From: Chrysomallon squamiferum
Lineage: Eukaryota; Animalia; Mollusca
Assembly: GCA_012295275.1 (NCBI GenBank)
Contig: CM022678.1
Span: forward strand, 12,710,001-12,774,000
DNA length: 64,000 nucleotides
Direction: 5' to 3'
Shown: in pieces, positions 2,950-55,130 of the stretch
How positions within the stretch are numbered: the first letter of the stretch is position 1
How the letters are laid out: every line of letters starts with the position of its first letter
Notes under the pieces: generated by a model
What the model was told of the DNA's origin: nothing
Databases searched by the model: none
Seen by the model: only the letters and a program-made list of their open reading frames with translations
Program-made: the position numbers and the translations under genes

Positions 2950-5900
2950 TCATTTATTTCTAAAACTGGTCAAATAAACATTTGAAAACACAAACAATAA
3001 AGTGTGTTATTTGCTAACTCGTGTCTACAAGACTGAACTATGTCTCAGTGACGTTGACTAGGGAGCTTGCTTATTTTAAAAGCTGACCTACTGTTTCACG
3101 CACGACACCCTGGAGTGACATTATCATCAACAGCTGCATAACGACATTTTTCCATTCTCTAACAATGAGTGTAACTACACTGGTTTCAAATTCTCCTTAA
3201 CAACTCAACCGTGAACACGATTAAAGTGCGGTCTGTCTAGGTAATAGTAGTAATAGTAGTAGTAGTAGTAGTAGTATGTGCAGAACACCGATATCATTTT
3301 CAAAATATGTACATGTGACAATGATATACACATAAAATACACTAGTTAAAAATTTAAAAAAAATAAAAATGGAACTATCGCAGTTAAATTAATGAACTGT
3401 CCATTAAAACATTTATTTTTAAAACTGGGCAAATTTTATTTTCTATAATGAAAATAATAAACATTTGCATAACAATAAAGTGTGTTCTTTGCTAATTCGT
3501 CTGTACGTGACAAAACTGATGTTGAGTACTTCAAGGAGTTGCACGCCCAGATCAGGTGACGATGATCTGATGTTAAAGTTATATGACCTTGAACAGTGAG
3601 CTTGTTTATTTTTAAAATCTAATGACAGAGAAAATTGAGTAGTAATAATAAAGTTTTCATTCTCAAACATTTACCAAATCAGTTGGTATGGTACCTTTTA
3701 TCTTTAGTTTAATTTCTGTGCTCGTCGCAATAATGTAATTTAATAATTAATTTGATATAAAGAAAACAAGAATTTTAACAATAAAATAACTTGAATCTTG
3801 CAAGAAATTATTTCAGAGAGAAGATAAAAAATACATTACAGAAACTAAACATAATAACAAAATACAGAAGACTAAAGCAGGAACAAAATCAATAATAAAT
3901 ATAATTTTAATAAGGAATACTTGTTCTAGCATTTTTGAATTACATCTCAGTATTACATTTCAATTATACCAAATCAGTACATTGAAATTAACATTTTACA
4001 TAGTTAACGTAGTTAATCAGTAATTAAAACTAATTGTTTACTTATTTGTTTATTTACCTACACAAAGGAATAAATAAATAAATAAATAAATAAACAAACA
4101 AACAGACAAATAAACAAAAATAACGCTCTTCTTTCCCAGTTCTCTGGTGTATTACTTCCTAATCGTTTCTGCGCGGATTGTTTTTAAAGAAAAACGCAAA
4201 CGAAAGTCGGCTGAAGCTCAAGTGCGCGCAGTTGCTCCTCACCGCTGGAATCGCGCGCCTAGGACAGCCGGAGGATTGACGCTGGCGACAACCAAACTGA
4301 AGTATCGAACCTGTATATTCAAACATTCATAGCCCAATTATTATTTCAACTAGAGTTTCAAAAATGAAACAACAAGTAGACGATATTGAAGAAACTAAAC
4401 TGAAGATCCGAAAATGGAATAAACATCTGGCTGACAAATACAGTAAAAATGTAAATAATGAAACCATCACGACTGTTATCTCGGATTTAGAAAATCTAAG
4501 TGAATCTTTTTCACACGAACTGCTTAAAACCACGTGAACAGAAATAGGTATCCGTGAACACCGCGATTAATACATGAAACCATTTTTACACAAATAGAGA
4601 TAACGCTCTGTAAATATTGTATTTTTAAATTTCTCTGGTTGAAAAACTAAACTGACTATACCAGAAGTTTTTAATTTTTGTAATCGGTATGATATTTTGT
4701 GTTTAGTAGAAACAAAAGTTGATGATATTGATCAGGTAGTAATACCAGGTTATGTAGTATATACAAATAACAGGAATGGAAAATCATGTGCTAAATCGGG
4801 CGGCATATGCCTAGCTGTCAATAGTAATATCACTTCAAAAGCACATGTTTATCAAAAAACATGTGAACATGTATTATGGTTTAAATTTAAAGATTAATTT
4901 GTATCTAGAAAAACATCTAATATAAGTATTGGTGTTGTATATTTACCGCATGTAGGCTCTCCTTATTTTAACGTGTTGCAAGACGAACTTAATAAATGTC
5001 TACTGAAAATATGTTCTTTTCGGCGATTTTAACGCCAGAAAACAGAAACTCCCTCGTTATATAATGTGTGAAATTGAAACAAATAACATGATACAATTTT
5101 GAGATAAATTATTTAATTTATGAACGAGCCAAAGAATCTGTTAAATTTAGGAAATTATCTAGAAAGAAAAAGTCAGGAGATTGGTAGGCCAAATAGTCAT
5201 GGATATACTTACTCAATTTTGCATAAATAGCAACATGTATCCTGTATACGGAAGAGATGATAATGATAAAAATATTTTTATCCTTTATATTCAGGCATTC
5301 ATAGTCCACTTATTATTTCTATTAGTTTCAAAAATGAAACAACAAGTAGACGATATTGAAGAAACTGAACTGGATAATGTAGAAAGTTAAAAATATCTCG
5401 GTATTATTTTTGCACAAATCGAATAGATTTACTAAGGCAAGAAACTTGTTATGAACACAAGCACTGAAGGCTGTATATTTCATTCTACGACAAAAAAAGA
5501 TGCCATAATATTTCCATCCATGACTCGTTTAACGTGCGGTCTGTAAAAGTATGTATACATGTACTGCGCACAGTAAAACGATAATAATAAGAAGAAAATA
5601 CCCATATTACATCTTTCTATTCTCTAACAATGAGTGCAGCTACGCAGGTTTCACATTGTCCTTGTTTACAACTAACCGTGAACACGATTAATGTGCGTTC
5701 TAAGTATCTATGCATGTACTGCGCACAGCAAACATGTAATAAGAAGAAAAAGAAGAAGAGGAAGAAGAAGAACAACAACAACAAAAAGGAAAACTGGTAT
5801 TAATTATTTTAAAGTGGAATGTATCTGGATCTCGTGAAAAATGATCTTACTTTAAAGTAGCAGTGACCCTGCTACTTTAAACTTGTTTAGTTTAAAATGT

Positions 5901-15477: not shown

Positions 15478-16411
15478 CTAAAACAAACAACAAACATAAA
15501 ATTCAGGTATCACACAACTTTCTCTGTTGTGCTGATGGGAGACATGAACAGCTGGTTCATCTTTCTGTGTAGCAACATTCTTTTCAGTCCCATCAGCTGA
15601 GAGAGGAATTATCTTTACACTTGGTTTAGCTGCACCATCTGACTGGCTGAGGTCAGGTCCAACATGTTCATCATTTCCATACAGTAGAGCCACATCAACG
15701 AGGTGGATATAAGTGTTCAGCCCAGCTTCATCATCAGGTCTAAGCAAGAAACAGTCTTCAAGCTTTTTCTTTATACCTGTGAGTTTTCAGCACACACTCT
15801 CTTTATCAATAAGACAACTTTATCTATCATGCAGTTCCTTCAGTCTATCATCCAATTCTTTCATACTATCATCCAGGTCCCTTTGTCTATCTATCTGTAT
15901 TATGTTCATTCTGTTTATCATCCTATATCTTCTTATTACCATCCATTTTCTATTTTTAGGACTATTATCAAGATTATTTTGAAATGACTGGTTCGAACTG
16001 ATCACGAAAACAGGAAATGTGTCTGATTATTTTCCACTTTCTGTTGGTGAAAGGTTTTGTCCTTTTGTCCTGTAGGTGCTACTGACCCACCAGCTAGAAA
16101 GATCTGGATAACAGTTGAGTTAGATGCATCAGTTGTGTTAAATCTGTCAGTTGATACAGGACTATGAATATCAGTGGGATTGCCAGTGTCAGGGCTGAAG
16201 GCAACGCTGAAATATCTGAGAGGGTTCAGAATGTCCATTAAGCTGACTGTGTTTTGACTGTGGCTGTCACTAGAATTCCCATGAGCCCTGGGAATAGCAC
16301 TGTTAAACTTAAAATCCAAGTCCAGGTTAAGAGGCTGTTTAGATTCAAGTCCATATCCTTTGTCTTTGATACCATCTTCCTGTTCAGTACCAGGTTTAGC
16401 AGTCTTGGCTT
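15478..16411 (-). pseudogene. Disrupted large exon of an unidentified protein (disordered plus coiled-coil)
   Basis: Acceptor ttattacag at 16413-16412 opens EAKTAKPGTEQEDGIKDK... After one frameshift near 16005, one frame runs to 15478 with two stops (15820-15822, 15787-15789) and includes RQRDLDDSMKELDDRLKELHDR. A phase-compatible donor G|GTAAGT lies at 16710. Confidence 0.55.
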
Positions 16412-17937
16412 CTGTAATAAATACATTGAAGTAAAGACAATGTACTGAAAGGAATTGCTTGTTTTCATGTTATGTAAAATGCTATGTTTTATCCAGTATA
16501 CTTTGTGTAAATATGTTATTAACCTTCCCTTGTAAAATGTAAACTTGTTTCTGTTGTTACTGTCTATTTGAACAGCACACTGAAATCTGTGTCCAGGACT
16601 GGTCTGAACAGTTTACATAGAGAGTTATCTTTCTTGGTTTAATCAACATTTCTTCTCTCTTCAGAGTGCTTTTCTTCCATATTTATCTATAAATAAATTT
16701 TCACACTTACCACCATCATCATCTTCATTTAATAAGAGTGTGTGGGCATTGTTTTGTGTGTTTATGTGTATTATGAAAATTAAATGTATGTATGTATATG
16801 TGTGCATATATGTGTCTATGTGTCTGTCTGTGTGTATGTGTGTGTGTGAGTGTGTGTTTAATGTTCTGAATCATTTTGTTTGTACCTTTCTGATTGGTCT
16901 GAAAAACATCTTTATCAGAAATATGAAATAAACCAATATGAAGAAAATGTTCATCTATTTCAGAAAAAGAAAAGAAATTAACAACAACAACAACAATAAT
17001 AAAATGAATAGTTATAATAGTAATAATAGCAACAACAACAACACTATAACAATAATTAAAAACACAATACTAATGAAATTATAGTTTTCAATCTGTATTT
17101 TTGCATTTAACGTTTTTTAGAAATATACTTTACTAAATCTAATTTGACACCCTTTTATTCACAGAAATAGTCTGTTCATGACCCCCGAGTTTTAACAGAT
17201 TTTGTTTCTCTTTTACGATTTGTTGTGTTTATTTCAATACGGTTAAAACTACAAAGTTTAATTCAGTGTAACAAAAGATAGGTCTACATAATTTGATAAA
17301 TCGTAAATTACTTAAAGTATCAGAGTATTAACCTGAATTCCGTATTTACAGTTCTGTTTTGTTTCATTCAGAAATACTTTAAAATGTATGAACCAACTGT
17401 TCGTTTGATGTTTCAGCTATAATACAAGAAAATAAACTACATAATTCTGAAATTGCATAATTCAGAGTTTTCATGTCTTGTTATGAGGATTAATTAGTAG
17501 TTTATTAATGACGAAAATTTGTAAGCAAACAGAAATAGGTAAATATTATACTTCAAAGAGATTTAAACAAAAGATATTAAATTAATTATCACTTTCAAAG
17601 TAAACTCTATTTGTTACATTCATAATAAAAATAAAAAAAACAAGAAAGAAAGTAAAATAAAGATAAGCATACCTTTTTTTAAGATAAAATATTCGATCGC
17701 CAATTCGCAGTAATATCACTGTTGCTATGAGTATAGCAAAATTTGATGACGTCATCACATGCTTCGCAAACTGTACTTCGGGACAGTTCGTTAATTTTAA
17801 CGAACCTTCAGCAATTTTTACAAGAAAAAGTTGTATTTTTTCTTTCTGTCAATTTTATATATTCCATAATTACGTTAAAACATTAATCAACTGATTAAAA
17901 GAAAGAAATAAAAAATTCAAACTGAAAAGAGTAATAA

Positions 17938-35495: not shown

Positions 35496-38400
35496 TTAAA
35501 CTGATTTTTTAGCTGCTGTTATTGATTCAGCTACATATTTCATAAAACGATGGACATCTTGAAATGAGCAGTACAGTGGTACAGGTGCTACTCGAATCAC
35601 ATCTGGAAGACGCTTGTCACACTGAAGAAGAAAAAGAAAAATGTATTTATTAATATGAAAATAATATGTTTAAAAACAAGGAAACCAAAAAGCATTTCTA
35701 TATAAATGCAGTTATGTAACTAAACATAAATGCAGAAATGAAAAAGTAGGTATTTTCTTAAATGGTAATAAATTTTCTAACCCAGGCAACAAAGATTTGT
35801 TTTTTTACTTCATTTGAAATAATTGAAAATTTTATACTGTATATTGCAGGTCTTCAAAAAATGACAGGCAAATTTGAAGTGTCCTTACAGTTTATTTGTT
35901 CACAATTTTGATCAAAAAATATCACAAAAGGAATCCTGAAAACAACATTGTTATGATTATTGCATAGGAATCAAAACAAAGTTAATCTCAACACCAGTGG
36001 CTATTTGTAAGCACATATATTGTTACAACTGCTGAGTTGTTACTCCACCCCAGGACACTTTAAAAGGAGTTTCTAATCTGGTGTCATTTCTCTTATTATG
36101 AACAGATTTTGCATCAGATGAAAATATAATTACTCCAGATTCATTACATAGGCTCTGAGGAAGCATACTAATTTGAAACTAATTAGCTTGACAGACAGTG
36201 TAAACATTTTATAAGTAATTGTTATTTAATTTTTATTTTCTTTCCCTTTGTAAAAATGCTAAAAAAAAAATTCAAACAATAATTTAGACATTCACATGTC
36301 CCAGTTTAACTGATGTATGGGATGTTTCATATTAAATTCCCTCCTTTCATAGTCAATTCCTTGTTGTGATGAAGGGGCTTGTATGTCTCAACAACTCAAA
36401 GAGCTGTGCCAGCTTTTGTTTGGAACACCCATGCTGGACAGGTCAATGGGTAGAGTCTAGACAAATGGGGTTATGGTGAGGTAATCTCAAGTGCTTAAAT
36501 CAAAAGTTTTGGGCTGCACGCATATTCTTCTAACAGACTACAAAAGCATTAATACAGCAAGTAATACGGAGAATAATATAGAAGAAAATGATATCATCTT
36601 TCAAGGAATGGCAACCAAGAGTATATCAAAGGTAAGTTTTTGAAGTACTATCCTTTGGAAATGAACTGTAAGAACAATGTATTGGTGGGCCAATTGCATT
36701 TGTATATGTTTTTTTTTATCTCAGATATTTTAGTGGATTTTTTTTTACTATATGCAACATTCTAAAAATACATTTTTAAAAATGTTTTGCATCATTAAAT
36801 CAACAAAATCATGTTATCAAACTTAAAGCCACAATATCAGATCATAGTAGACTTTTAGGATGTATCAATTTACAAAGTTATACAGTTTGAAGAATCAAAT
36901 TTTTTAGTTTATGAAGTATTTTTCAAATACATGGAGACATACAAACTGCATCATTATAAATCCTTTCATCATCATCATACATTTAAAGTTCTTTGTTACT
37001 TAACTTTCTGTAGAACCTAATGAAAGTTAAATAACAAAGAACTTTTTAATGATGCCTGTTTAGTCCTATTTTGAAATTGCGAGGTTATTCAAAATGAGTT
37101 CAATGATAAATTAAATCTGTGACCATCAGAGAATCAGAAAAACAAGATGCAGTCTTCATAATAAAATTAGGTCTATATTCTGTAGTGAACAAACCAAAAT
37201 TGAGTATCAAATTCAAACTAACCTAGACTGCGATTCTAAAAATGTTGTGTATTATGTAAAACAAACAAGTCTGCCAAATACAAAATGTTACAGGATAGAT
37301 CTGTTAGGCATAAAGTTGACATTCCTGTGACCTAACATTTTAATCTATATGACCATATACTGGATGCTCATTCTGAAATAATCCCAATACAGAAACCCCC
37401 ATTCATAGTTGAAAAGCAAATGGAAAACTCTTGAGATTCGAATGAATAGCTTTCTGGATTCACACATCTGGAATAAATGCATCTGGTAAATTCTATCAAA
37501 ATCTCCAGCTAGATTTGATTTGTACTCATCATACATTCCATATGTTCATTTTAACAATGTTATATGATTTGCAACAATATTTTTCATTCACTGCCAAAAC
37601 AAAGATCTGCTACATTAATTACTATATCATTGCACTGACTTTTTTACAGAGAGCTGAAATTATAACATCCAGAAAGGAGTTAAATAACTCTTAGTAACTA
37701 GAAGCATAAACATCTGAGTGGCTGAAATCTCAGTCATGATCTAGATGCTTATATACGTGAGCAGCCAAAATATCAGCTGCAAGCTACAAACAATTACATA
37801 CCCAAACCTATGAAATACAGGCCAGGGATTCCACTGATGGCAGTGTTTATGCTGCAGTTTGTGGGATCATCTTTACTGTTACTCAGTGGCTCCTGATGAA
37901 TTTGCCTTAATGCTTAACTGAATAAGGGCTTTCATATCAGTCTGCAAAAAGTTGAAGGGCTAGCATTTATGAGACCAACATTCTGATCAAAACCCAGTTA
38001 AAGATATGGCTAGTTTGCTTTTATTGTCAACTGATCAAGTTCTAGATGTGTGATAAACATTATGAATGAGCAAGCTGATCACCTGCTTCATTTGTAATTT
38101 AATTTAACAACCTGTGACATTTCTTTGTTTAAGGTAGCTATGCGGATCCAGAAATGTGTTCCAAATATATGTGAACTATGGATTGACATGTATATACAAT
38201 GTTCAGATGTTAAAAATGAGTTTGTGAAATGTTATTTTGTTAACTAAAATGATTCTCTTTCTTTTTTTCCTCTAAGGAAATGACAATGACATGAATATAT
38301 CTGGGTTTTGTTCATTCTGACATGTATAATTCATTTTCTGCTAGCCAGTTGACTTGAGCTGCTGCAAACACTGCCAAGAATAAAGAAAAGATGTAAAGAT

Positions 38401-41400
38401 ACTTTCAGAAATTGTACAGATTCTTTTAGCAGTTAACAAAACAAACTATGCAAACCAAGGCAAAGCTTCTTCAGTGATTCTAAAATAAAATTTGTACAGA
38501 TTAACCAGTGACTTACTTTTATGAATGCCTTTTCAGTTAAAACTTTTGGAGGAAGAAAGCCATAACCTCTCAAGTTATTTGTTGTTATCATTAGATTTGT
38601 GCATCTTGGGCACTGACCTCTTGAATAATAAAATGCACTTCTTTTGTATAATTCCAGTTTCAGGTCTGGTATTCCTATATGAATATGACCTTGGCAGCTC
38701 ACTGTTTAACTAATTTCAGTCACACTTATAGCAGAGTCAGTTTTTGCTGACACAGACCTAATAATTAAAATATTGCCAACATGACAATGAACGAAATGAA
38801 TTGCTTTTCAAATTGCAACCTCAAGAAATAATAAATATACATGAAACAGAATGGCGTGTTAAGTTTCCTAATGTTGCTGATATTAAGCATAGAGTGTGAG
38901 ATGGGATTCAGCTAGCAAAGGCTGTTCAAGATACACTGGACTTACTGATGCAGATTTCAAAAGAGGGAAACAATACTATAACATTTTCTGAGAGGGATGA
39001 AAACAAAAGTTATGAATGACACTGTTCCCTAACATATGTATAAAATGCATGTAAAAGAAGTGAAAATGCCAGTGAATATACATAAGCAATATTTTAAAGA
39101 AAGGACTAGTGCTGAAAACAATAAAACAATCCTCATTTATTTAGATCAAACTTACCACTACACCTCGCTTCTGCAACTCATCACTGATGACATGGACATC
39201 AATGTTAAATTTCAAAGACAGTTGAGCACCACGTTGATCAGGGTCAGATGGTGTCAATATTTCAATATAAACTTCATCCAACTTTGGTCCATTATTTGGC
39301 TGTTGATATTTTTTTTTTACAAGAAGTTCAAGGTAGCCAGTCAGAAGTACTGATTTTTTCCTCAGATCATCCATCGATGTTTTATTGAAAATCTAAAAGC
39401 AACAAAATAAAACTGACTTGGAAACAAACAAATCTGAACACATGGTATGAATCAACTTTGTATTTTAAATTGTAAAGCATTTTACCAAAACTTAAACTCA
39501 TGACTACAATCAAAATATAAAATATAAACACATCTCTATGCACTCAATGTTTATTTCCATATTAAAAAATCTACACTGTAGAGAATAAATTCAAACACAA
39601 ACAAAATATTTTGAAGATGTTTTAAGAAAAATACCTCAAAACTGGCTTTCAGTGGTGGACAGAGAAGACCAGGTGGATTGGAAACCCTATAACCATATAT
39701 TCCAGGACTCAGATCAATTTCTAAAATTTAATTATTTTGAAAAATATATTACCAAAAATCAGTCAAGTTATTAGGTGCTGATATTAACAATTTGCATAGG
39801 CTTCAAAGATTTTTATAATATATGACATGAAAAACATTTGGCTCTTTTATAGTTCATTTTATCTTTAATATTTATTATTACTGTTTTTCTGAAGGTGCTC
39901 TAAAACTCCTGCAGTATTCATGAAATCAACAAAAATGCACAAAAATAAATAATTATTTAAAAAGTTGAATTTTAAAACAATTTTTTTTTTTTTTTTTTTT
40001 TGTCACTTAAATTTCATTGCTAACTCCTAAAAACATTATTAAAAAAATATTTAAGATATCTTACTGTTATCCATAACAAATCTAGTGTCTATTCGGTGGC
40101 CCCACCATCCCACCAACTTTGGGAAATCATTCAAGCTATGTTTTTCATGGAGAAAAGCTCCAGCCAGACCACCAGCACTTGCACACATGTACTGAAATTT
40201 TAAAACCAAAGAATTAAAAACTATTTAAATAGAGTTTTTATGTTATAAAAGAAGAAACTAAATCTTAAATTTCAAGGATATTTAAACAAAATATAATTCA
40301 CAAAATTCTAATATAAACAAATTAAAAAACACACATAAGTACATAATGAATATGGAATTGAAAAGATCAAAGAAGAAGTGTAATTAAAACAATGTTCTGT
40401 TAATTATGTATTTTAATTAGTTATATAACTGAAAGAAAATCGTAATTAAAAAAGTTATTAAAAAGAAATTAAGTGAAAAAGGATATTAATTGTAACATAC
40501 CTTCTGTTATTAATTGAAAAGTCCCCCCACCAAAAAAAAAAAAAAAAAGAAGGTAAAAGGATATTAGTTATACCATACCTTGTATGAACACCAACAGGCA
40601 AAGTCAACTCCCCAATCATGTAAATACAATGGTACATTCCCTGCTGCATGTGCCATGTCCCACCCAACATAACAACCTTTAGCCTGCCCAGCTTTGGTTA
40701 TCTCTTCTATGTCGAACAGCTGACCAGTGTAATATTGGACTCCAGACAAACATATCACTGCTATACTATCCCCTTCTTCTTCTATTTTCTTCAAAATGTC
40801 TTCTGTTTGAAGAGTGGCTTCACCCTGGATTTTAATTTATGTATATTGACAAGTAATCATGCAATTGTGTGAGATTCTAAAATAACAAACACAAGACACT
40901 CCTTACTTTGTCTTTAATAAACCTACTAGTTCAAAATTAAGGCATAGTTTTGTTACTGCATTCAATAGAATAACAGGTTGCAGAATCAGACTGTGCATCA
41001 TTTGTCTTCTTTCAACTTCAAGATTGATAATATTTTAAAAAAGATGTGTAATAGACTTATTAACTAAATATTATAATCAAAATCATTTTATAATATATAT
41101 TTAGAAAAAAAAACTTTTTTTTTTTAAACTTTTATACTTATTAACTATATTACTAACCTCTCTTGGTTCTAGACAGACCAGACTAGTTTTAGGATCATAA
41201 CCATGTAAACGTATTTGGCTTTCAAAAGCATACTGAAAATTAAACATTTTTCAGAAAATAAAATCCTTTGATAAACATTATTACATAATGCTATTATGTT
41301 TCGTTGTGGTTTCCACACAAAAAGAACTAATGTAAACTATTTAAATACAATTTGTTCATAATAACTAAAATTTTAATAAAAAGAATGTCTGTATTTAAAA

Positions 41401-44400
41401 CATTTTGAATTTAATATGAATTTACATAATTAAATTATCTCTAACATTTTATAACTTAATATGAATTTTTTGATGTTGTAATTTTAGAAATGTTTTATAA
41501 TTGTTATTATTTACAAATAATGCTCAAGTTAGGCATGAGAGTAATCATTCACTATTTTATTATTTTTAACATACATGATCTGATGGAAATGCTTTGCCTT
41601 CACACATAATTTTGTGTCGTGATTTTGATGGTCGATAGAAAGAGACCTGTAAAAAATAAATAGAAAAGTCAGAAAATCTAGCATTTTTATATTTTTAAAT
41701 AACTACAAAGCCACTAATAAAAATGTTATTTAAAAACTTTTTTACATGATATAACAGAAATAAGTTCATTCTGTTCATTAATTAAAAACTGATGTCTTAT
41801 TTACAGGAGATACTAATTTACATTATAAAAAAATACATATTTAATCTTAATCAAGTTTTTTTTAACAATCCACTTAGTATTTTTACTACTGAATGGCAAA
41901 AAATATGAGTGAAGATAAAAACAAAATTTTAATACAAACCAACAATAAATGTAGATTGACAGTTAAGCCATTCATTATGGCTACTTCTCCTTTTTTACCT
42001 CCTGAAAGAAAGTAAAAAAATGCCAGCTTACATAAAAATCACTTTTCTAAAACAAATACATTGAAATTTAAAAACAAAAAACAAAAAATTTGAAATCTAT
42101 CAGAACAAAATAAAAGTCCAAAAAATTACAAACCATAATAATCAAAAAAAGTATTTATCACTGTATCTTTAAATAAATTAAAAATTAATATAACGTCATT
42201 CTTTTATTATCCTTTTACACATTTATACCAATACAATATAACAAAGTTGAAAAAATAACATCTGTCAGGAAACTTCAAATGTTTTTTGAGCAAACATTTA
42301 TTAAAAAAATAAAAATAAAAATATTAAAGCAAAAAGAAATGAATAAAAAACACAATAATACAAAATCCAAATGACAAAACATATACTTGTTAAGAGAATT
42401 ACACAACCAAAAAATGACAAAGGAAAAAGTCAAGGTAAAAATTTCAAACTAAGTTGTGAAGTTATATGTAAGTAGAACTGCATGCATGCTTAAGTAGTTT
42501 ATACATTAATAAGGTTAGATATTGAAACATGCATAATATATTGTTTTTAAATTTTATAATTACAGAATTTCTAAAACATGATGATGATGTAAACATTACA
42601 ATTTTTTTTTAATGTATAAAATTATAAATAAAAAAATTAAAGAATTAGAGTAGTCTGAAATTAAATTAAACTTTTAAATGAATTTTTGTTGTATTTAAGC
42701 ATATTTTGAGATATCTCAATTCTGGACATCTAAGCATTTGTCTGAAAATCAATAAATGAAACATAAGTAATCTTAGTTTATAAATTCTAGATTGTTAACT
42801 TGCAAAAACTCAAACCACTGCAAACACAAATACAACCTCATAAAACTAATTTTAGGCACAAATTTGTATCCTTAAAACTAAACACTAAAATAAAAATAGC
42901 TAACATAGCAAGAGTGACTATACTAGCACAGTTTATACTTTGTCTTTAGAATGTGATTAAACTCTTATCATTACTTAATGCCCTGTAGGTGGAAAAAATA
43001 ATAAAGAAACTGATGCAGTGAAATTACTGAACTGATGGTGCATGGACATCACATATCTTTCATCTAAAAAGCCAATATAGCTGCCTCAAGCTGCAAGTGC
43101 AATGCCTGATGCAACCAGGCTTGCATAATTTTATAGTAATAAAACTGCAAACCTTGGAATAATACCAATTTTAATAATAATAATTATAAACATTTTTTTT
43201 TTTTTAAATTTAAAATAAAAAAAAAACACTGAGAAAGAAAGAACAGAGAAACAAAAATGCTGACAAAATGTTTTTAAAACTAAAATAGTAGAAATAGACT
43301 CCATTAGTGAATATAGGCATACATCTAACAAGTAGATCACAATAAATAAATAAATAAATAAATAAAAATAATAATAATAATAATAATAATCATCATCATC
43401 ATCAAAATCTGGCATTAAGAATGATAAGAGTAAAAATTAAATCAAAATCAAAGACAAAATATTCTGTGCTACTCACCAACCAGTCGCGCCATATCCAAAT
43501 CTAAACATTCATCACAAAATGCCCATGGAAGAACACCTTCCCTATGACCTTGAACTCCTCTACAAGTAATAGAAAGAAAAAAAAAGTCCAAAACAATTGT
43601 CTTTTTGTTACCTTTGAACCTGAAGAGCCAAACAAAAGTGACCTGTCATATGTCCAGGATGTCCTCTACAATTAAAAAAAATAATAATAAATTTGCTTAA
43701 ACTTTTACTCCTAAAATTACTTATTTTTACTGCATTTAATTTTAATATTTTTTTTGTTGTTGTTGCCGTTTTCTTTCTTCTTTTTTTTTTGTTATTTGTG
43801 TTTTGCTAATTCATGGCTGAATGGCTGGTTGTAAAAATACTGTAGAAGAAGCATTTTATTTTGGGAAGGTCAACAAACATTCATTTTGTTTTTTAATCCT
43901 CTTACACTTTACTGATACATTCAAGATGTAAACAGATGTGTTCCTGGTAACAGTTTCCATTATTTATAAGGTTTACCTTTTTTTAATTTGGTAACATATT
44001 GAACAGTTTATCAACATTATCTTGTAAATCTAAATGTACATACATCATTAATTTATGACCATGTGGGATCCTGCAAATTGGTTGCAAGTTGATCTGGACA
44101 GAAGTCAAACATTTATATTTATAAAATCTATATTATTGTATGTACAGTACTGTATGTAATCATATTATCTCATCCTATTAAATCATACATATGTATAATT
44201 TATTATTTTTTTCAGTAAATCTTTTAATTAGTTTAATTCAAACATTTCACATTACAATGTGCTGAATACTTGCTTGTTTGTTTTTCTTTAAATTACATTT
44301 CATAGCACAAACTAATGCCACTGTCACATAGCAAGTCAAAGTCAAACAGTTGTAACCTGACAACTATATTTATAAATATAAATGTTCTGGATACATCAAA

Positions 44401-47226
44401 ACAAGATATTAAATTCAAATTACTAAGAATTATTATTTGTCTTGCAGCTGTATGAAATGTTATTCTTCTTATAATATTAAAAAAATAATCTTATACTATG
44501 AAATGAAAGTAGGGGGAAAACAACAACTCAAATGCACAGAAAAATTTCAGTTGTACCACAGATAAATAGCAATATCATTTATCCTAAACACTGTTAATTT
44601 TATAGTTTCTTTCTATTAGGAATAAATATTAATGAAATTATTATTAATGATTTAGATCTATATAATTTTAAAAAAATCTCTCGTTAAATACAAGATATTA
44701 ATAAAGAAAAAGTTGAAGGAAAATGTTTATGTATTTCTGAACAAAAAATTCAGTAAAATTAAATTTCACCTTTTGATTGATATTAATCAATTATTTCCTA
44801 AACATGTAAGATTCCAATGAAGAAAGAAACAAACAAAAAAATAAATAAAATAAAAAATAAGGAAAAAAGCAGAACTCAAGACAGGTAAAATATAATACAG
44901 GTAAAAACTTACACTTCAGTATCAATTTTCATATTATTTATTAAATTTAAATCTTTATTGCAGCACTGCAATTAAATTATGTTAAAGCATAAAATAAGTT
45001 TTAAGTTGTTTTTAATCAAAATATTGCAATTATTCATATATAATAATCACTTAATTAGTTAAAATTGGTATTGTTTATTTTTTTTCAATTAAGACCATGC
45101 AATTTTTTTACCAAGACCTCAAATATGCTCAACAAAATGCAATGCAAAATGTTAATAGGACAAACATGCTGACAGACTATTGACAAACATTAATTTATAT
45201 ATCTACATACAATTATATTTTAATGACATTTTAAAACAGCAAGTTTTCTTTCTTTTTCTGAATTGAGAGCAATAAAGTCCAAAGGAAAAAGATGTGTCTC
45301 TCTGCCATTATCTCTCACACACAGACACAGACATAGACACAGAACCACAGACACACACCAAGCATACATGTAAAAAAAAAAAAAAAAAGTTATTCTTAAC
45401 CAATAAAAATAGATAAAAATTAAAATAAAATGTTTAGCTAAGATGAAAGAATTCAGTATATGTTTATTTATCATAACAAACTCCACATTAAGAATTGTTA
45501 ATATTAATATTCACCTATACCAACACCTGTTACTTTCATTTTTTCATAGCAGTAATTTTATGCTTTGTATCTAATGGAAATGTGATTATAATTTGTTTTT
45601 GGTTTTTTTTTTGGTTTGGGGGTTTTTCATATATAAATAAACCATAATAAGAAAAGGCTAATAATTATGGGTCTCGCATTCATAATACTCACCAACAATC
45701 TTAGCTAGGTCACTGTCCAAACATTCATCACACATTGCCCAGGGAAGGTCTCCATTAAAATGACCCTCCACAGCCCTGGGTGAGATAACATACAGTATAT
45801 TTAATATCTCCTAGGTGACACAATATCAAAGATATACTGGTGGCTCTTGTGAATTAAAAATGTACAACAATATTGTATTTTGTTGTTTGTGGTTTAGACA
45901 ATGGGCTATATACTAATTAATATTCCAGTATTATTTTAATCCAGGACATACATGAATAGACTAGTGTACATTTCAAGTGACAAATTTAAAAATACATAAA
46001 TAATTTAGTGTCTTATGGGCTAGTTAGCATTATATTAGATTTCTGTGGCTTAAGATAAAGTAATAAAATATGAGGCTGAAATAATTTTTGCAGACTTAAC
46101 CATGAAATTTACTGCACAGTGCAACATCTTATATTACACTTGCTCTGAAATACTACACTAATGACATATGAACTCATACGTCAGTGAAAAAAGGAACAAC
46201 TAAAACAAAAGTCTTTTGTTTCATTATATTATGGCTGAATATGATACTTTGAAACAGATCCACTGGAGTTTTGAAACAATAAAATAAAAATAAAATATAA
46301 AATAATAACAATCTTAAAATAAATAGCATAATGTTTTTACTGGCTGACGGAAAAATAAAAAATAAGAAAAATGAAAAAAAAAAACATTTTTCTGAAACTA
46401 TCTGCTAATAAAAAAAATAATTATAAAATGAAATAAATGAACATTAAAGATATAAATATCAGGCTAGCAAATTCATAAACCCAATTTTTAGTACATATTA
46501 TGAATTAATCACTAAATTTAAATCTAGAACAGCAATGCAAAAACAAGATAGAATCAATTAAAGAAAAGTTAAAAAAAAAAGTAAAAAAAAGAAAAGCAAG
46601 ACAAAACAAGAAACTACATGCAAAAACAGCCTAAATATCTACATCTAATACATTAGTAAAAATGAAGCATATATTTAAACTTTTTTTTGTGTAGTCTACA
46701 CATTAGTCTTATGAAGACAAAATCATCTTCACAACTATTTTAAGGATTTACTCACTAGCTAGTAATTTAGCAAACTTTAGGTGTTGAGAAATAAAAAAGT
46801 ATGTAAATTTTTTCATGTAGGAAATTTATTTTGAAAACTATGGATATATCTGAATTAGTTATTTTTAACTATACAAATACAGAATTACTTACAGTTTGGC
46901 CCACTTGTCTAACTCAATATCCATAAACATTTTAGTTTTTTTTGGACAAAGACCAAGTGAGTTGCCACAGAAATAAACACAGTCATCCTCTGGATCCACA
47001 AGAGATAAATCAGCTAAAAAATATATATATTATATTAAAAAATAAAAATAAAAATATATTAATGAGTAAAACTACATTTATAAAATACATAATCAAATGG
47101 ATAAAATGTTAGATAAAATTTGTTATTTATATTTTTAATAGAATATTTGAAAAGCAAAAAAAAAAGGAAAATAAACATATTGAAAAAAAAAAGTTTAAAT
47201 GGAAAGGAATGAACATATTACTAATG

Positions 47227-47268
<42 letters not shown>

Positions 47269-48884
47269 GTATAAAATCACAATGTTAATTCCATCTATAT
47301 TAATAACAATATTTTGGATCTAATTGCTGATTTTCTTTCATATTGCTACCTCGTTAAGAATAAAGTGATTGTGGCACCAAGCACAACTCAAGCCTGTGCC
47401 CTAACCATGAGCAAAAGCTTTAATCTTGGCCCATGTTTGAACCTGATAAACTGTTGGAACTTTGAAACTATTACAAAGTACAGCTGAAAATATAATCAAA
47501 AATTAAGATTAGTGGAAGAATCACTTTATTCTTAATGGGGCCAGAGATATAAAGGAAAATGAGCACTTTGTCAAAAATTTGTGTTGTGAATTCTCTAACT
47601 GGAATTTATCTCTGACAGTTTGTGTGTGTGTGCAATGAATACCTTTCAAATAATTTTATTTTCATTTTTTTATATATATGATTGGAAAGTGAACTTCTAA
47701 ACTGAGAAAAGCTATTTTCTGATAGTCTTTTATAAACTAGACAACCATCATTATTAACTTCAAACATATAATACAAATCTGTAGAGAAAAGCTTTAAATG
47801 ACCAAAAAGTTAACTTATATTAGTACTAAGGTTTTTTTAATGACAATAACTCTTGAAGTTTGTGGATTTACAATATTTTACTGTAGCCATCTATAATACT
47901 CATAAAAACAATTATACAAATTAACAGATGAAAGAAACTTAAAAATAGTTCTGGTAAAATACTAGAATGAACAAAGCACCACATGAATCTAATTTGCTAC
48001 ATGATACAAGATTGGGAATCATGATCATTTTAGAGATGTGAAGTAACATATAGGCATAAGCCACTTCATGTCCCTTTCAGATCAATGCTCAGATCACTTA
48101 CACTGCCATATCAGATGCATTTCATTTTGGGATAGACTGAAGCACAATCTCATCAATAGATGCATCAGTCTGAATTTTCTACAGATTATTAAAATAATTA
48201 TATGTATACATATCTTTAAATTGTGATGTCCTTTAAGAGAAAACTTTGTTTGAATAAAGTGAGTAAAATTGATCTTTTCCCAAAACAAAACGCACTCAAA
48301 ATTACTCAAAACAGTCAGTAGAACAATTGTTCAAGCAAAATCAAGTTGAAAGATAAGAGAAAAATCTTTTGGACTAATGTTTGAATTCAACTGCCATTTG
48401 CATCAGGCTGGGGGGGTTCTTTTACGCTGTGGGGTGTGAGAACAGTGACACAGATGTACCTATAGTACTGTACAAGGTACAAGTCTGACTGGGAATTGTA
48501 CTTTGTAGCTGAATATATTCATTTTAATTAAAAGTGGATTTGTTTTTGATATATAATGTTACATGTGAAAAGAGGAGGAAAAAATAAATAATTGTACAAA
48601 CTGTACTGCAACATAATTGTTATAAAAATTGTTATAAAAAAAAAATAATTGTTAAAAGATTTGTAAAAAAAAAATATATATTATTATAAAAAAAGATTTC
48701 TAGCTTAAATGAGCAACTCACTGTGTGCAAGGTCTTTCATTTTGGGATAGAAAAAGTCATCTCGTAGAAAATGAAGTTTATCTTGTTTATCCATGTACAA
48801 TGCAAACTGAAGATCGTTAACATCATAACCCAGTTCATTAGCAACTGAAACTAATTCCTCAGCAGGATGATTTTTTGAAGCCAT
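35496..48884 (-). CDS. KYNU: Kynureninase (PLP-dependent), 465 aa, 11 coding exons plus one alternative exon
   Basis: Exons with GT-AG boundaries and consistent phases: 48884-48722, 47013-46893, [45775-45693 or 43559-43477], 42001-41940, 41646-41575, 41232-41158, 40824-40579, 40191-40065, 39720-39635, 39392-39156, 35621-35496. Total 1398 nt. Motifs: [55 protein letters not shown] (PLP lysine), [33 protein letters not shown]. Confidence 0.97.
36358..36470 (+). mobile_element. RTE-clade LINE/SINE 5' fragment in the last KYNU intron
   Basis: ccttgttgtgatgaaggggcttgtatgtctcaa...acccatgctggacaggtca resembles the recalled 5' region of RTE/BovB-like elements. Confidence 0.5.
37300..38750. mobile_element. 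Heavily decayed coding-like insertion in the last KYNU intron, possibly transposase-derived
   Basis: Higher-complexity, microsatellite-free block with short broken ORFs. Plus-strand pieces [15 protein letters not shown] and KDMASLL loosely recall KDZ/HMGXB3-type transposase motifs. Family and strand are uncertain. Confidence 0.25.
43477..43559 (-). CDS. KYNU: KYNU alternative coding exon 3B: [27 protein letters not shown]
   Basis: 83 nt, acceptor ttacttgtag after a T-rich tract, donor GTGAGT, same phases as 3A, open frame. 17/27 aa identical to 3A. Confidence 0.9.
45693..45775 (-). CDS. KYNU: KYNU alternative coding exon 3A: [27 protein letters not shown]
   Basis: 83 nt, acceptor tatctcacccag, donor GTGAGT, phase 2 in and phase 1 out, open frame. 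Homologous to human [27 protein letters not shown]. Confidence 0.9.
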
Positions 48885-49294
48885 TACTGTAACTAAATAT
48901 GAAACAAAATTAATTTAGAAAACAAAAAACGGTACAATGTACATAAATATATAATATATAAAATTTACAAAATGATAAAATTGTATGTGCCAGTTATGAT
49001 TATCATTATAGTTAAAGCTTCATTCGGTGTAGATCATATACCAAAGTAGCACCCTTTATTTACTTAATTAATAACGGTTAATAATAACTTGTTAATTAAT
49101 ATAGTCATGAAAAAATATAGCAAATATTAATCTTATTAATTAGTCTGTAGAGTTATTGTTGTTATTATTATTATATAATTCAATAGTTACCGTGTCGGGT
49201 GTAACTTTTTTCAGTAACTATACACATGATAATCGATAGGTCACTTACACTTTAAGTTTACGTTAAATATCGTTATGACTTCAAATAGATCATT

Positions 49295-49342
<48 letters not shown>

Positions 49343-49441
49343 ATGTCAATAACTTGAACTCAATTTACTTATATGACGACGTATTTTTTCAATTTAATAA
49401 AAATTTGCTGACCCGTAGAAAACAATTTGACCTACACTTAC

Positions 49442-49520
49442 CTTTAAGCCGCGTGGCACTCACTCTGCCGTTCAGGAAAAGCAGACGGCAAATTTGTAAT
49501 ACGGTCTTGTCACGTGATGC
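49442..49520 (-). promoter_or_regulatory. Probable KYNU non-coding first exon and promoter
   Basis: Locally GC/CpG-rich patch ending in a strong donor AAG|GTAAGT (GT at 49441-49440). E-box GTCACGTGA at 49509-49517. The ATG exon at 48884 is preceded by an AG acceptor. Confidence 0.55.
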
Positions 49521-53146: not shown

Positions 53147-54682
53147 ATGGCTGAATCTGATGAACAGTATCCACTTCCTCCACCACTTCCACCTGCTGTA
53201 CCAAGATGTCCATGGACGCTGGACACTCACAGCAACAGAGGTTAGAAGTTAGTCAATGTCTTTATAGTGCTAATTGAAATTCACACAGATGTAAATGGTG
53301 CCAGATGAATAATTTTATTTTCAGAGTTGCTGAAACATTACAGCTGGCTTAGTAAGAATAATAAATACTGCATATTTTAAGGAAAATAATTAAAAAGAAC
53401 CAATGAAAAACCATAAATAAAATTTCAGGGCATTTTTTATTTCATTTTTTGTTATGAAGAAAAGAACAGTTTTTGTCTCTAACAAATTCAGAACCATAAG
53501 AAAAGTCAGTGATTATTAAGTAGAAATTTAATTTTTGAAGTTTATTTTGTAGGAAAACGATACCAGAAAGAATTGCAGTTCCGTCTTGTTGGTGCTATAG
53601 AACAACAGAACACGGAGAAAATTAAATATCTTATCCAGTGTGGTGTTAACACTGACTGTACAATTCTCTATGCCAAAACTCCACTTCTGCATGCCACTGA
53701 ACAAGGATATGAAGAAGTTGCAACACTTTTAATGGACTCTGGTGCTGATCTAGAGAAAGCAGAATTTGTAGCTTCACAGAGACAACCACTTCACATAGCA
53801 GCCACAAATGGATCATACAACTTAACAAAAGCACTGCTAATCAGAGGAGCCAAAGTGGATGGAAAAGATGGGTCAGGGATGACTGCTTTGCATCACGCAT
53901 GTTTCCACGGGCATGCAGATGTTGCTGATCTGCTCCTCCAGTATGGTGCTAGTGTTATGACAAGTGATAATTGTTCCAGAGATGCATTCCACAGGGCGGT
54001 AGAAGGGGGACACCTTGATCTAGCAGACATGCTGCTTCATCACAATGCTGCCATTGATGGTGTTGACAGGTTTGGCTGGTCACCATTGTTCCAGTGTGTT
54101 GCTTGTAACAGAATTGATAGAGTCAAGTTTTTACTTGATAGAGGTGCAGATATTAACTTAACAGACAAAAAAGGTGACACCCCACTGCATATTGCTTGTT
54201 GCCGGTTGTCAAGAGAAAATGTCAGAATTATGTTATCCACTTCAGTGGACTTTTATAGACGAATTAGAAAAATTCCTACATCAGAGCTTCAGGAATTGTT
54301 ACAAGATGAACACAGTAATGATTTTGAAATGGTTCAACTTCTTATAAACCGAGGTTCAGATATCAATGCTGTTAATGATTTCTTTGCCCGTCCTCTTCAT
54401 CTGGCTCGTGATCCAATGATTCTTAAGTTTCTAGTCTATTGTGGATCTGTGATTGACTTTGAAATGTTGTTGTGTATGTTTGTGGAGTCAATGCAAAGCA
54501 GCTGGTTGTCAGATCACTTTAGTGAGCAACTGCAGTTGCAGAAACTGTGCCGCACAGCTATACGTTCATGTCTGAGACACACTCATGATATTGAGAGTGC
54601 AATTGTTCGACTGCCAGTGCCAGAAAAGATGAAGGAATATCTGAACCTGTCTGATTTCTGGGAGGATGTGTCAACATCATAA
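53147..54682 (+). CDS. Ankyrin repeat and SOCS box protein (ASB-like Cullin-5 substrate adaptor), 407 aa, 2 coding exons
   Basis: Exon 53147-53240 (MAESDEQYPLPPPLPPAVPRCPW..., donor G|GTTAG) splices in frame to 53553-54682. About 7 ankyrin repeats (TPLLHA, QPLHIAA, TALHHAC, DAFHRAV, SPLFQC, TPLHIAC, RPLHLA). C-terminal SOCS box LQLQKLCRTAIR...LPVPEKMKEYL. Confidence 0.93.
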
Positions 54683-54719: not shown

Positions 54720-55130
54720 TACAAGTTTTCCAGCAATACCTTCCAGATCTCTGTTTTTATACCCAAGTAACAGTGCCTATCAATGAAGATTGCGATTATT
54801 ATAAACTGTATAATTATATACTCTCTACAACTTGTTTCAGAATTTGGTGTGTTTTAGTATCACTGCCAGCCACGAGACTGTCATCCATCGTATATACCCT
54901 TCTGATTCCTCCTAGCATCTGATCCATTATTCTCTGGAATGCTTCAGGAGCACAGGAAATTGCAAATGGAAGATGTAACCATCTGTATCTTTCTATGGTG
55001 TATTGAGTTTTGTGAGATAGGAGGAAGTTCATCAAGTTTCATCTGGAGAAATCCACACTTTGCATCTTGTTTGGAGAATACATTGGCTTCAGGAATTTTT
55101 GATACTTTGTCATTTATAGGTAATGTTTTC
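54720..55130 (-). mobile_element. Ty3/Gypsy-type reverse transcriptase fragment
   Basis: NVFSKQDAKCGFLQMKLDE, RYRWLHLPFAISCAPEAFQRIMDQML and YTMDD (degenerate YxDD), broken by frameshifts. Confidence 0.8.

Follow-up and report, generated by a model that had tools for sequence, protein, structure and literature searches.

A Candidate Pair of Mutually Exclusive Exons over the Substrate-Specificity Loop of Kynureninase in Chrysomallon squamiferum

A Kynureninase Gene with Two Copies of Exon 3

Kynureninase stands at the branch between anthranilate and 3-hydroxyanthranilate. We analysed a stretch of 64,000 nucleotides (nt) from Chrysomallon squamiferum (assembly GCA_012295275.1, contig CM022678.1, positions 12,710,001 to 12,774,000, hereafter the window), which carries on its minus strand, from 48884 to 35496, a kynureninase gene of 11 exons (Table 1). 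The third of these exons is present in two copies, 3a and 3b, as had been noticed in a first-pass annotation made from the letters alone. Direct reading bears out the exons described there: each copy is 83 nt long, has the same phase, an AG acceptor and a TTG/GTGAGT donor, and is open in one common frame only. The copies are separated by 2,133 nt and agree at 52 of 83 nucleotides and 17 of 27 residues, 7 of the 17 identical residues being encoded by different synonymous codons (the protein and codon counts came out on recount as originally given). Scripted splicing also confirmed that either copy alone yields an enzyme of 465 residues, while joint inclusion or joint omission shifts the frame (141 and 96 residues, respectively). 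The two full-length proteins differ at 10 residues, all within the swapped loop, and are otherwise identical. Finally, the pair is the only one of its kind in the window, as had been claimed: a six-frame ungapped scan found no duplicate of any other exon (mutual score of 3a and 3b, 103; best off-target score, 30).

The best protein matches of the predicted enzyme are molluscan. It is 81% identical to the kynureninase of Gigantopelta aegis and clusters with the two Gigantopelta genes in a 24-row tree (support 100/99). Against the TIGR01814 profile, the Gigantopelta orthologues score 482 and 478 bits for a cut-off of 246, and exon 7 of the window alone scores 122 bits, as a fragment. Both isoforms carry the equivalents of Ser75, His102, Phe165, Asp168, Asp250, His253, Tyr275, Lys276, Trp305, Phe314, Ser332, Asn333 and Arg434 (human numbering, used throughout), His100 corresponding to human His102 and Asn331 to human Asn333 (offset +2, via the Gigantopelta orthologue). 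An AlphaFold2 model of the 3a-type isoform of Gigantopelta (predicted local distance difference test, 95.5) superposes on the human structure 3E9K with template modelling scores of 0.93/0.97 and a root-mean-square deviation of 1.6 Å. The alignment agrees with the first-pass statement that the duplicated exon encodes the His102 loop and that both copies keep the histidine.

Table 1. Coordinates of the exons of the kynureninase gene and of the predicted pairing elements, as positions within the window
Feature	Position	Strand	Remarks
Coding exon 1	48722..48884	-	ATG at 48884; gene model with 465-residue frame
Exon 2	46893..47013	-	Constitutive; carries Ser75 equivalent; last 30 nt joined to exon 3a in a contig of RNA run X4
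Alternative exon 3a	45693..45775	-	Residues 96-122; His102, Phe103, Met111, Leu120
Alternative exon 3b	43477..43559	-	Residues 96-122; His102, Arg103, Phe111, Met120
Exon 4	41940..42001	-	Gene model
Exon 5	41575..41646	-	Phe165, Asp168 equivalents
Exon 6	41158..41232	-	Gene model
Exon 7	40579..40824	-	Asp250, His253, Tyr275 and pyridoxal phosphate-binding Lys276 equivalents
Exon 8	40065..40191	-	Trp305, Phe314 equivalents
Exon 9	39635..39720	-	Ser332, Asn333 equivalents; common to both isoforms
Exon 10	39156..39392	-	Gene model
Exon 11 to stop codon	35496..35621	-	Arg434 equivalent
Stem, 5' arm	43411..43495	-	Last 19 nt of exon 3b, donor and 66 nt of intron; prediction
Stem, 3' arm	42902..42982	-	Intron between exon 3b and exon 4; prediction
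Weak second partner of the 3' arm	44300..44328	-	Doubtful selector; -25.6 kcal/mol; 5 of 100 shuffles as good

Conservation and Age of the Exon Pair

Two kinds of kynureninase-like isoforms are listed for G. aegis in RefSeq, both as automatic models: isoform X1 (XP_041361627.1 and XP_041361629.1) and isoform X2 (XP_041361628.1). Both are 465 residues long, and their 12 differences are confined to residues 96-121. Exon 3a matches isoform X2 at 21 of 27 residues and isoform X1 at 16, exon 3b matches isoform X1 at 21 and isoform X2 at 15, and the identity outside exon 3 amounts to 356 of 436 residues (82%), so that, judged by sequence, each exon copy appears to have been kept to roughly the same degree as the remaining protein. 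Since 3a pairs with X2 and 3b with X1, the duplication predates the split of the two species; the divergence of the two sequenced peltospirids, for which the available part of the G. aegis genome paper gives ~116 million years (71-184; PMC7895826), can serve as a yardstick only. Five sites of the four exon-3 sequences group by exon type in both species (3a/3b: Ala/Gly98, Glu/Gln100, Phe/Arg103, Met/Phe111, Leu/Met120), and one groups by species. The latter is residue 117; moreover, residue 113 is Cys in 3a as in 3b, yet Arg in both Gigantopelta 3a-type segments. Together, residues 113 and 117 hint at local gene conversion between the exon copies.

The first-pass annotation had taken the pair for an old duplication with both copies under purifying selection, and had named absence of the second copy from relatives as a point that would speak against its reading of the pair; both copies are present and intact in the protein models of G. 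aegis. The comparison of nonsynonymous and synonymous change that it proposed was run between the copies (Nei-Gojobori) and points the same way: the proportions of synonymous and nonsynonymous differences are 0.72 and 0.28, for a rate ratio (dN/dS) of ~0.15 (Fisher p = 0.002), over 27 codons only and with dS near saturation. In a neutral simulation at the same nucleotide divergence, none of 20,000 copies stayed open with at least 17 identical residues. The introns flanking the two copies are no longer similar (2-4 of 10 bases per bin). On the strength of these selection statistics and of the orthologous Gigantopelta pair, a pseudo-exon, a recent duplication and an assembly artefact were all rejected.

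To place the pair among molluscs, we used a comparison set of 327 proteins, 293 of which cover the exon-3 segment. When proteins with at least 97% identity beyond the segment were paired (214 pairs), 5 or more differences within it occurred in two cases only, the window isoforms and those of Gigantopelta. Within the clusters behind 30 of the proteins, members with a swapped exon 3 were found for Gigantopelta only, these clusters hiding members below 90% identity; none of six short fragments carrying the segment has the second exon type; and a metagenome scan with exon 7 returned 80 loci, almost all of them with an uninterrupted frame, of which 76 cover the segment and none has two copies. The exon pair looks lineage-restricted on these sequences, but this absence from other molluscs is weak evidence because the clusters hide members below 90% identity and because minor exons can escape annotation. 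At positions 98, 100 and 120, 3b is closer than 3a to the mollusc consensus. One record of the set, P0292, is a genomic exon-2 frame and ends at the same exon boundary. The guanine plus cytosine content (G+C) is 28% in the window and 37.2% on average in the G. aegis genome (PMC7895826), a contrast that fits a neomphalidan snail other than G. aegis.

What the Swap Changes in the Active Site

According to the portions available of a study of engineered human kynureninase (PMC11329768), the loop formed by residues 102-112 tunes selectivity with His102 and Asn333 in place and accounts for 5 of the 17 changes in one evolved variant and 7 of the 24 in another, the triple change E103F-V104H-G105T raises the catalytic efficiency (kcat/KM) for kynurenine 17-fold, and, in simulations, Phe103 stacks on kynurenine while Glu103 bonds 3-hydroxykynurenine. 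Both snails carry Phe103 in the 3a exon and a charged Arg103 in the 3b exon. Positions 103-106 read F-N-G-D in 3a and F-E-G-D in Gigantopelta isoform X2; the kynurenine specialist HsKYNase_66 bears E103F, V104E and K106D (PMC11329768), which are matched by Phe103 and Asp106 of 3a and, in isoform X2, also by Glu104. The swap is nevertheless no classic specificity switch, because the 3a and 3b enzymes share His102 and Asn333; any effect would come from fine adjustment at and around position 103 rather than from the exchange of a canonical determinant. The first-pass picture was therefore too strong as far as a swap of the canonical determinant is concerned: the loop residues do differ by exon type, but the canonical determinants do not.

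Other molluscan kynureninases have departed further. The second Gigantopelta gene (P0005/P0122), one of two that the supplements of the genome paper list, as far as available, without comment, has a 3a-type segment (21 of 27 residues identical to isoform X2, 14 of 27 to isoform X1) with Tyr102 and Ser333, which, by its sequence, puts this paralogue still farther from the 3-hydroxykynurenine motif. His102 is likewise replaced by Tyr in three scallop proteins (P0012, P0016, P0030) and by Arg in the snail-like P0004 (a JGI record). Three of the mollusc kynureninases devoid of His102 also lack Asn333 (Ser or Ala instead), and these extra enzymes fall in three separate parts of the tree.

RNA Evidence on Exon Use

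Five runs overlap part of the region, and four RNA runs, available as assembled contigs, were compared over 626 bases around exon 3a. Run X4 contains one contig of 113 nt made of exactly exon 3a and the last 30 nt of exon 2, and the junction 46893>45775, first on the list of junctions that the first-pass annotation wanted mapped, thus exists (in one of four runs). The same run has a further contig with an unspliced 3a donor; runs X2 and X3 have exon 3a only unspliced, and run X1 has no contig over these bases. The spliced contig breaks exactly at both ends of exon 3a. When nine scenarios were simulated on a k=31 graph, one fitted both contigs fully: the junctions 2>3a, 2>3b and 3a>3b together with an unspliced 3a donor, and no 3a>4. 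The contig ends and the simulation suggest the junction 2>3b (46893>43559), and hence use of 3b here. They can also be read as 3a followed by a sequence not starting with G, most simply 3b, which counts against clean exclusion.

A single difference separates RNA and genome in the ~1,230 contig bases compared: at window position 45714, all three covered runs have C for T on the plus strand (A>G in sense), which changes Ser116 to Gly in exon 3a. It is either an allele, an assembly difference or adenosine-to-inosine editing; no editing helix was found around 45714, where 7 of 12 shuffles pair as well.

A Predicted RNA Stem over the Donor of Exon 3b

Seven regions around splice sites were scanned for pairing. 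The scan predicts a stem of 66 pairs (58 Watson-Crick, -71 kcal/mol), in which most positions from -6 to +10 of the 3b donor are paired and which is a new element reported here. It ranks first of 89 scan windows across the gene (mean -32, standard deviation 6.9, next -50), and its core is equalled by none of 60 shuffles. The 601-nt region containing it has a z-score of -6.4 (0 of 20 shuffles), vs. 0.24 for the matching flank of 3a. Neither arm is clearly repeated at another place in the window, and the transition mismatches between the arms are all G-U compatible on the sense strand (6 of 6; p = 0.016, inflated by the route of discovery). Pairing at the 3a acceptor was not significant (5 of 12 shuffles as good), an Rfam search of positions 35500-49500 yielded nothing but two matches below threshold, both remote from exon 3, and the stem is not among the 25 longest of a generic inverted-repeat list, which is dominated by AT-rich chance pairs.

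The stem is read as a likely repressor of the 3b donor that would act in a timing-dependent manner, as for human ATE1, in which long-range pairing takes part in exon choice (10.1101/2020.06.04.134791, in the part available); it may also be a functionless, decayed inverted duplication. Excerpts of PMC6071210 describe docking sites in 14-3-3zeta, Mhc and MRP1 whose position resembles that of the 3' arm, in the intron after the last variable exon. In those docking/selector systems several selectors compete, whereas here one dominant stem overlaps the donor of the downstream exon itself. A two-selector docking model was left unsupported: the second partner of the 3' arm is weak and is outcompeted in folding, with 0.0 expected pairs when co-folded with the main stem. 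Steric exclusion was rejected as a splicing control because of the distance between 3a and 3b. The loop of the stem (42990-43160) has a higher G+C than its surroundings and several short hairpins without Rfam match, and 42 nt of it resemble window positions 3358-3399 (81%).

Interpretation and Alternatives

We propose that the gene yields two 465-residue enzymes through the choice between 3a and 3b, of which the 3a enzyme would cleave kynurenine better and the 3b enzyme would lean towards 3-hydroxykynurenine; we give this full statement about an even chance. That both isoforms are made as protein, taken by itself, is very probable. Each productive transcript would contain one of the two exons, double inclusion or skipping leading to early stops and nonsense-mediated decay. 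Exon 3b would be the default, and 3a would be chosen when the 3b donor is masked: folding of the stem before commitment of the 3b splice sites would cause 3b to be skipped and allow 3a to be joined to exon 4. With a kynurenine-leaning generalist encoded by 3a and a 3-hydroxykynurenine-leaning enzyme by 3b, exon choice would shift the flux between anthranilate and 3-hydroxyanthranilate, the precursor of nicotinamide adenine dinucleotide (NAD) and rhodoquinone.

Several observations weigh against this proposal. The two forms do not differ at His102, Asn333 or position 110 (Ala). At position 103, Phe is the most frequent residue (137 of 273 sequences, redundant isoforms included; Arg, 6), and records of the eastern oyster (Crassostrea virginica cluster P0156, P0280-P0286) have Thr or Phe there, apparently as alleles; site 103 thus tolerates change. 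The 17-fold effect was obtained with three changes jointly in a human background, and Arg103 is absent from those data; the selectivity of Phe103 and Arg103 is predicted from sequence and by analogy with the human enzyme. The stem is predicted from one sequence, by a sense-strand energy scan that favours G-U pairs there. As for the transcripts, exon 3a is spliced in just one of the four runs, unspliced in two and without a contig in one, the ends of the X4 contig fit double inclusion (3a>3b), and the junction 3a>4 (45693>42001) was not seen over the 626 bases around 3a. The mutual exclusivity claimed by the first-pass annotation is hence a candidate reading: the anatomy, the frames, the 2>3a junction and the Gigantopelta isoforms fit two full-length forms, and the contig ends and the unseen 3a>4 junction call strict exclusion into question; of the other junctions to be mapped, 2>3b is suggested by contig ends only. 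Tissue-specific steering and heterodimers, which that annotation also raised, would be conjectural consequences.

Both isoforms might instead be made and needed yet perform the same chemistry, being kept for differences between tissues or conditions, or in stability or turnover. We regard this as possible, if clearly the less probable account. All canonical catalytic and specificity residues are indeed common to both forms, most of the positions at which 3a and 3b differ vary freely among 48 other mollusc sequences, and other molluscs manage with a single exon (2 divergent pairs among 214). Against equivalence stand the five differences fixed by exon type in two species, Leu120 of 3a, which departs from the Met found in 48 of 48 other mollusc sequences, and the concentration of about one third of the changes of two independently evolved human variants in loop 102-112 (PMC11329768, in its available part). 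Another account would make 3a mostly a poison exon in this species, included together with 3b so that the frameshift and decay of the transcript tune the enzyme level, with the 3a protein rare or fading. The sole spliced 3a contig does end at both exon ends, the only full fit of the simulation lacks 3a>4, exon 3a is unspliced in runs X2 and X3, and its acceptor has a lower pyrimidine fraction (0.64) than the 3b acceptor (0.86). However, some constitutive exons have acceptors as weak, the depth is only ~2.6-5, assemblers discard rare junctions, and loss of 3a>4 in this way would leave identical contig ends; an untranslated exon, moreover, would not need to match isoform X2 at 21 of 27 residues, close to the protein-wide 82%. 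We hold the poison exon to be improbable.

Sulfur-containing amino-acid conjugates are a side activity of kynureninase, and one isoform might serve another substrate of this sort, relevant to a sulfide-rich habitat. Molluscs repeatedly keep second kynureninase genes without His102, some also without Asn333, which suggests that a second specificity is called for, but in the present gene both exons keep His102 and share Asn333, no test result hints at a new substrate, and the habitat of the window species is taken from that of a relative. This is the most improbable of the explanations considered here. Returning to the two-enzyme proposal, it can be extended, quite speculatively and with a low probability, into a second splicing switch of the rhodoquinone pathway, one step above COQ-2: a rate- or temperature-sensitive stem would select either the 3-hydroxykynurenine enzyme (for rhodoquinone and NAD, under sulfide or low oxygen) or the kynurenine generalist (for anthranilate), and a second kynureninase specificity would have arisen more than once, through a duplicated exon in this gene and through duplicated genes in scallops and other snails.

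Relation to Known Systems and Significance

Tandem alternative exons give rise to kinetically distinct enzyme forms in pyruvate kinase (M1/M2) and ketohexokinase (A/C), which belong to other families and to vertebrates. Tandem mutually exclusive exons that remodel an enzyme active site are an already known kind, of which COQ-2 and CYP4F3 are examples. CYP4F3 also has tandem alternative exons, in another family and in vertebrates, and with measured kinetics (cited in PMC7434440, in the passages available). In COQ-2, as here, two homologous internal exons (6a/6e), of which each transcript carries one, remodel the substrate site, and molluscs, which make rhodoquinone, switch COQ-2 in this way; that same source, as far as available, calls clear cases of one splice choice altering an enzyme substrate rare (PMC7434440). 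Both enzymes lie in one pathway, kynureninase making the 3-hydroxyanthranilate used by COQ-2e. The differences are as clear: COQ-2 switching was shown by genetics and spans helminths, annelids and molluscs (PMC7434440), whereas the kynureninase pair, seen in no more than two related snails, leaves the canonical specificity residues unchanged and is a switch by prediction; the orthologous pair of G. aegis, in turn, is known as annotation only.

The tie of the exon pair to rhodoquinone is one of pathway context, with nothing direct. From what is available of the respective sources, the rhodoquinone precursor in C. elegans is 3-hydroxyanthranilate, not anthranilate (PMC6656428), kynureninase mutants die in sulfide, rhodoquinone being needed for sulfide survival (PMC11422605), vent annelids retain both COQ2 exons (PMC12403961), and helminth kynureninase is described as having no special active-site residues (PMC8659336). 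No similar exon pair was found in other rhodoquinone-making molluscs among the records compared. As to the novelty of a kynureninase exon switch, which the first-pass annotation had asserted, we found no paper describing one in the full-text literature, subscription papers not being covered and most papers being judged by title or the start of the abstract; under the terms tried, the scaly-foot snail genome paper has no passage on it, and a fungal precedent with two kynureninases did not turn up in usable form. On the other hand, the isoforms are already present in RefSeq.

The duplicated exon coincides exactly with the loop that engineers had to alter in human kynureninase to shift it to kynurenine, with cancer therapy in view. 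In HsKYNase_8, HsKYNase_93D9 as well as HsKYNase_66, substrate preference was shifted via loop 102-112, with E103F in all three, and HsKYNase_93D9 is a generalist that retains His102 and Asn333 (PMC11329768; PDB 7S3V; available part). Those are laboratory variants with 3 to 24 changes, whereas the snail gene exchanges this loop in a single exon. With 10 residues of the engineered loop as their sole difference, the two isoforms offer an experiment already set up by nature. A regulated switch at this step, if true of vent snails, would add a new point of control to the anaerobic metabolism of animals; with equivalent isoforms, the pair would be an ordinary lineage-restricted exon duplication.

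Other Features of the Window

On the minus strand, at ~15480-16610, several open frames of 100-155 codons have a protein-like composition and are possibly exons of another gene; two of them gave no match in Pfam. A stop-interrupted frame at ~54800-55120, also on the minus strand, looks, when judged by eye, like the decayed reverse transcriptase of a retrotransposon. Upstream of the kynureninase gene and head to head with it, the plus strand carries an open frame of 389 codons (53513-54682) with ankyrin repeats and a C-terminal SOCS box, as in E3 adaptors of the ASB type.

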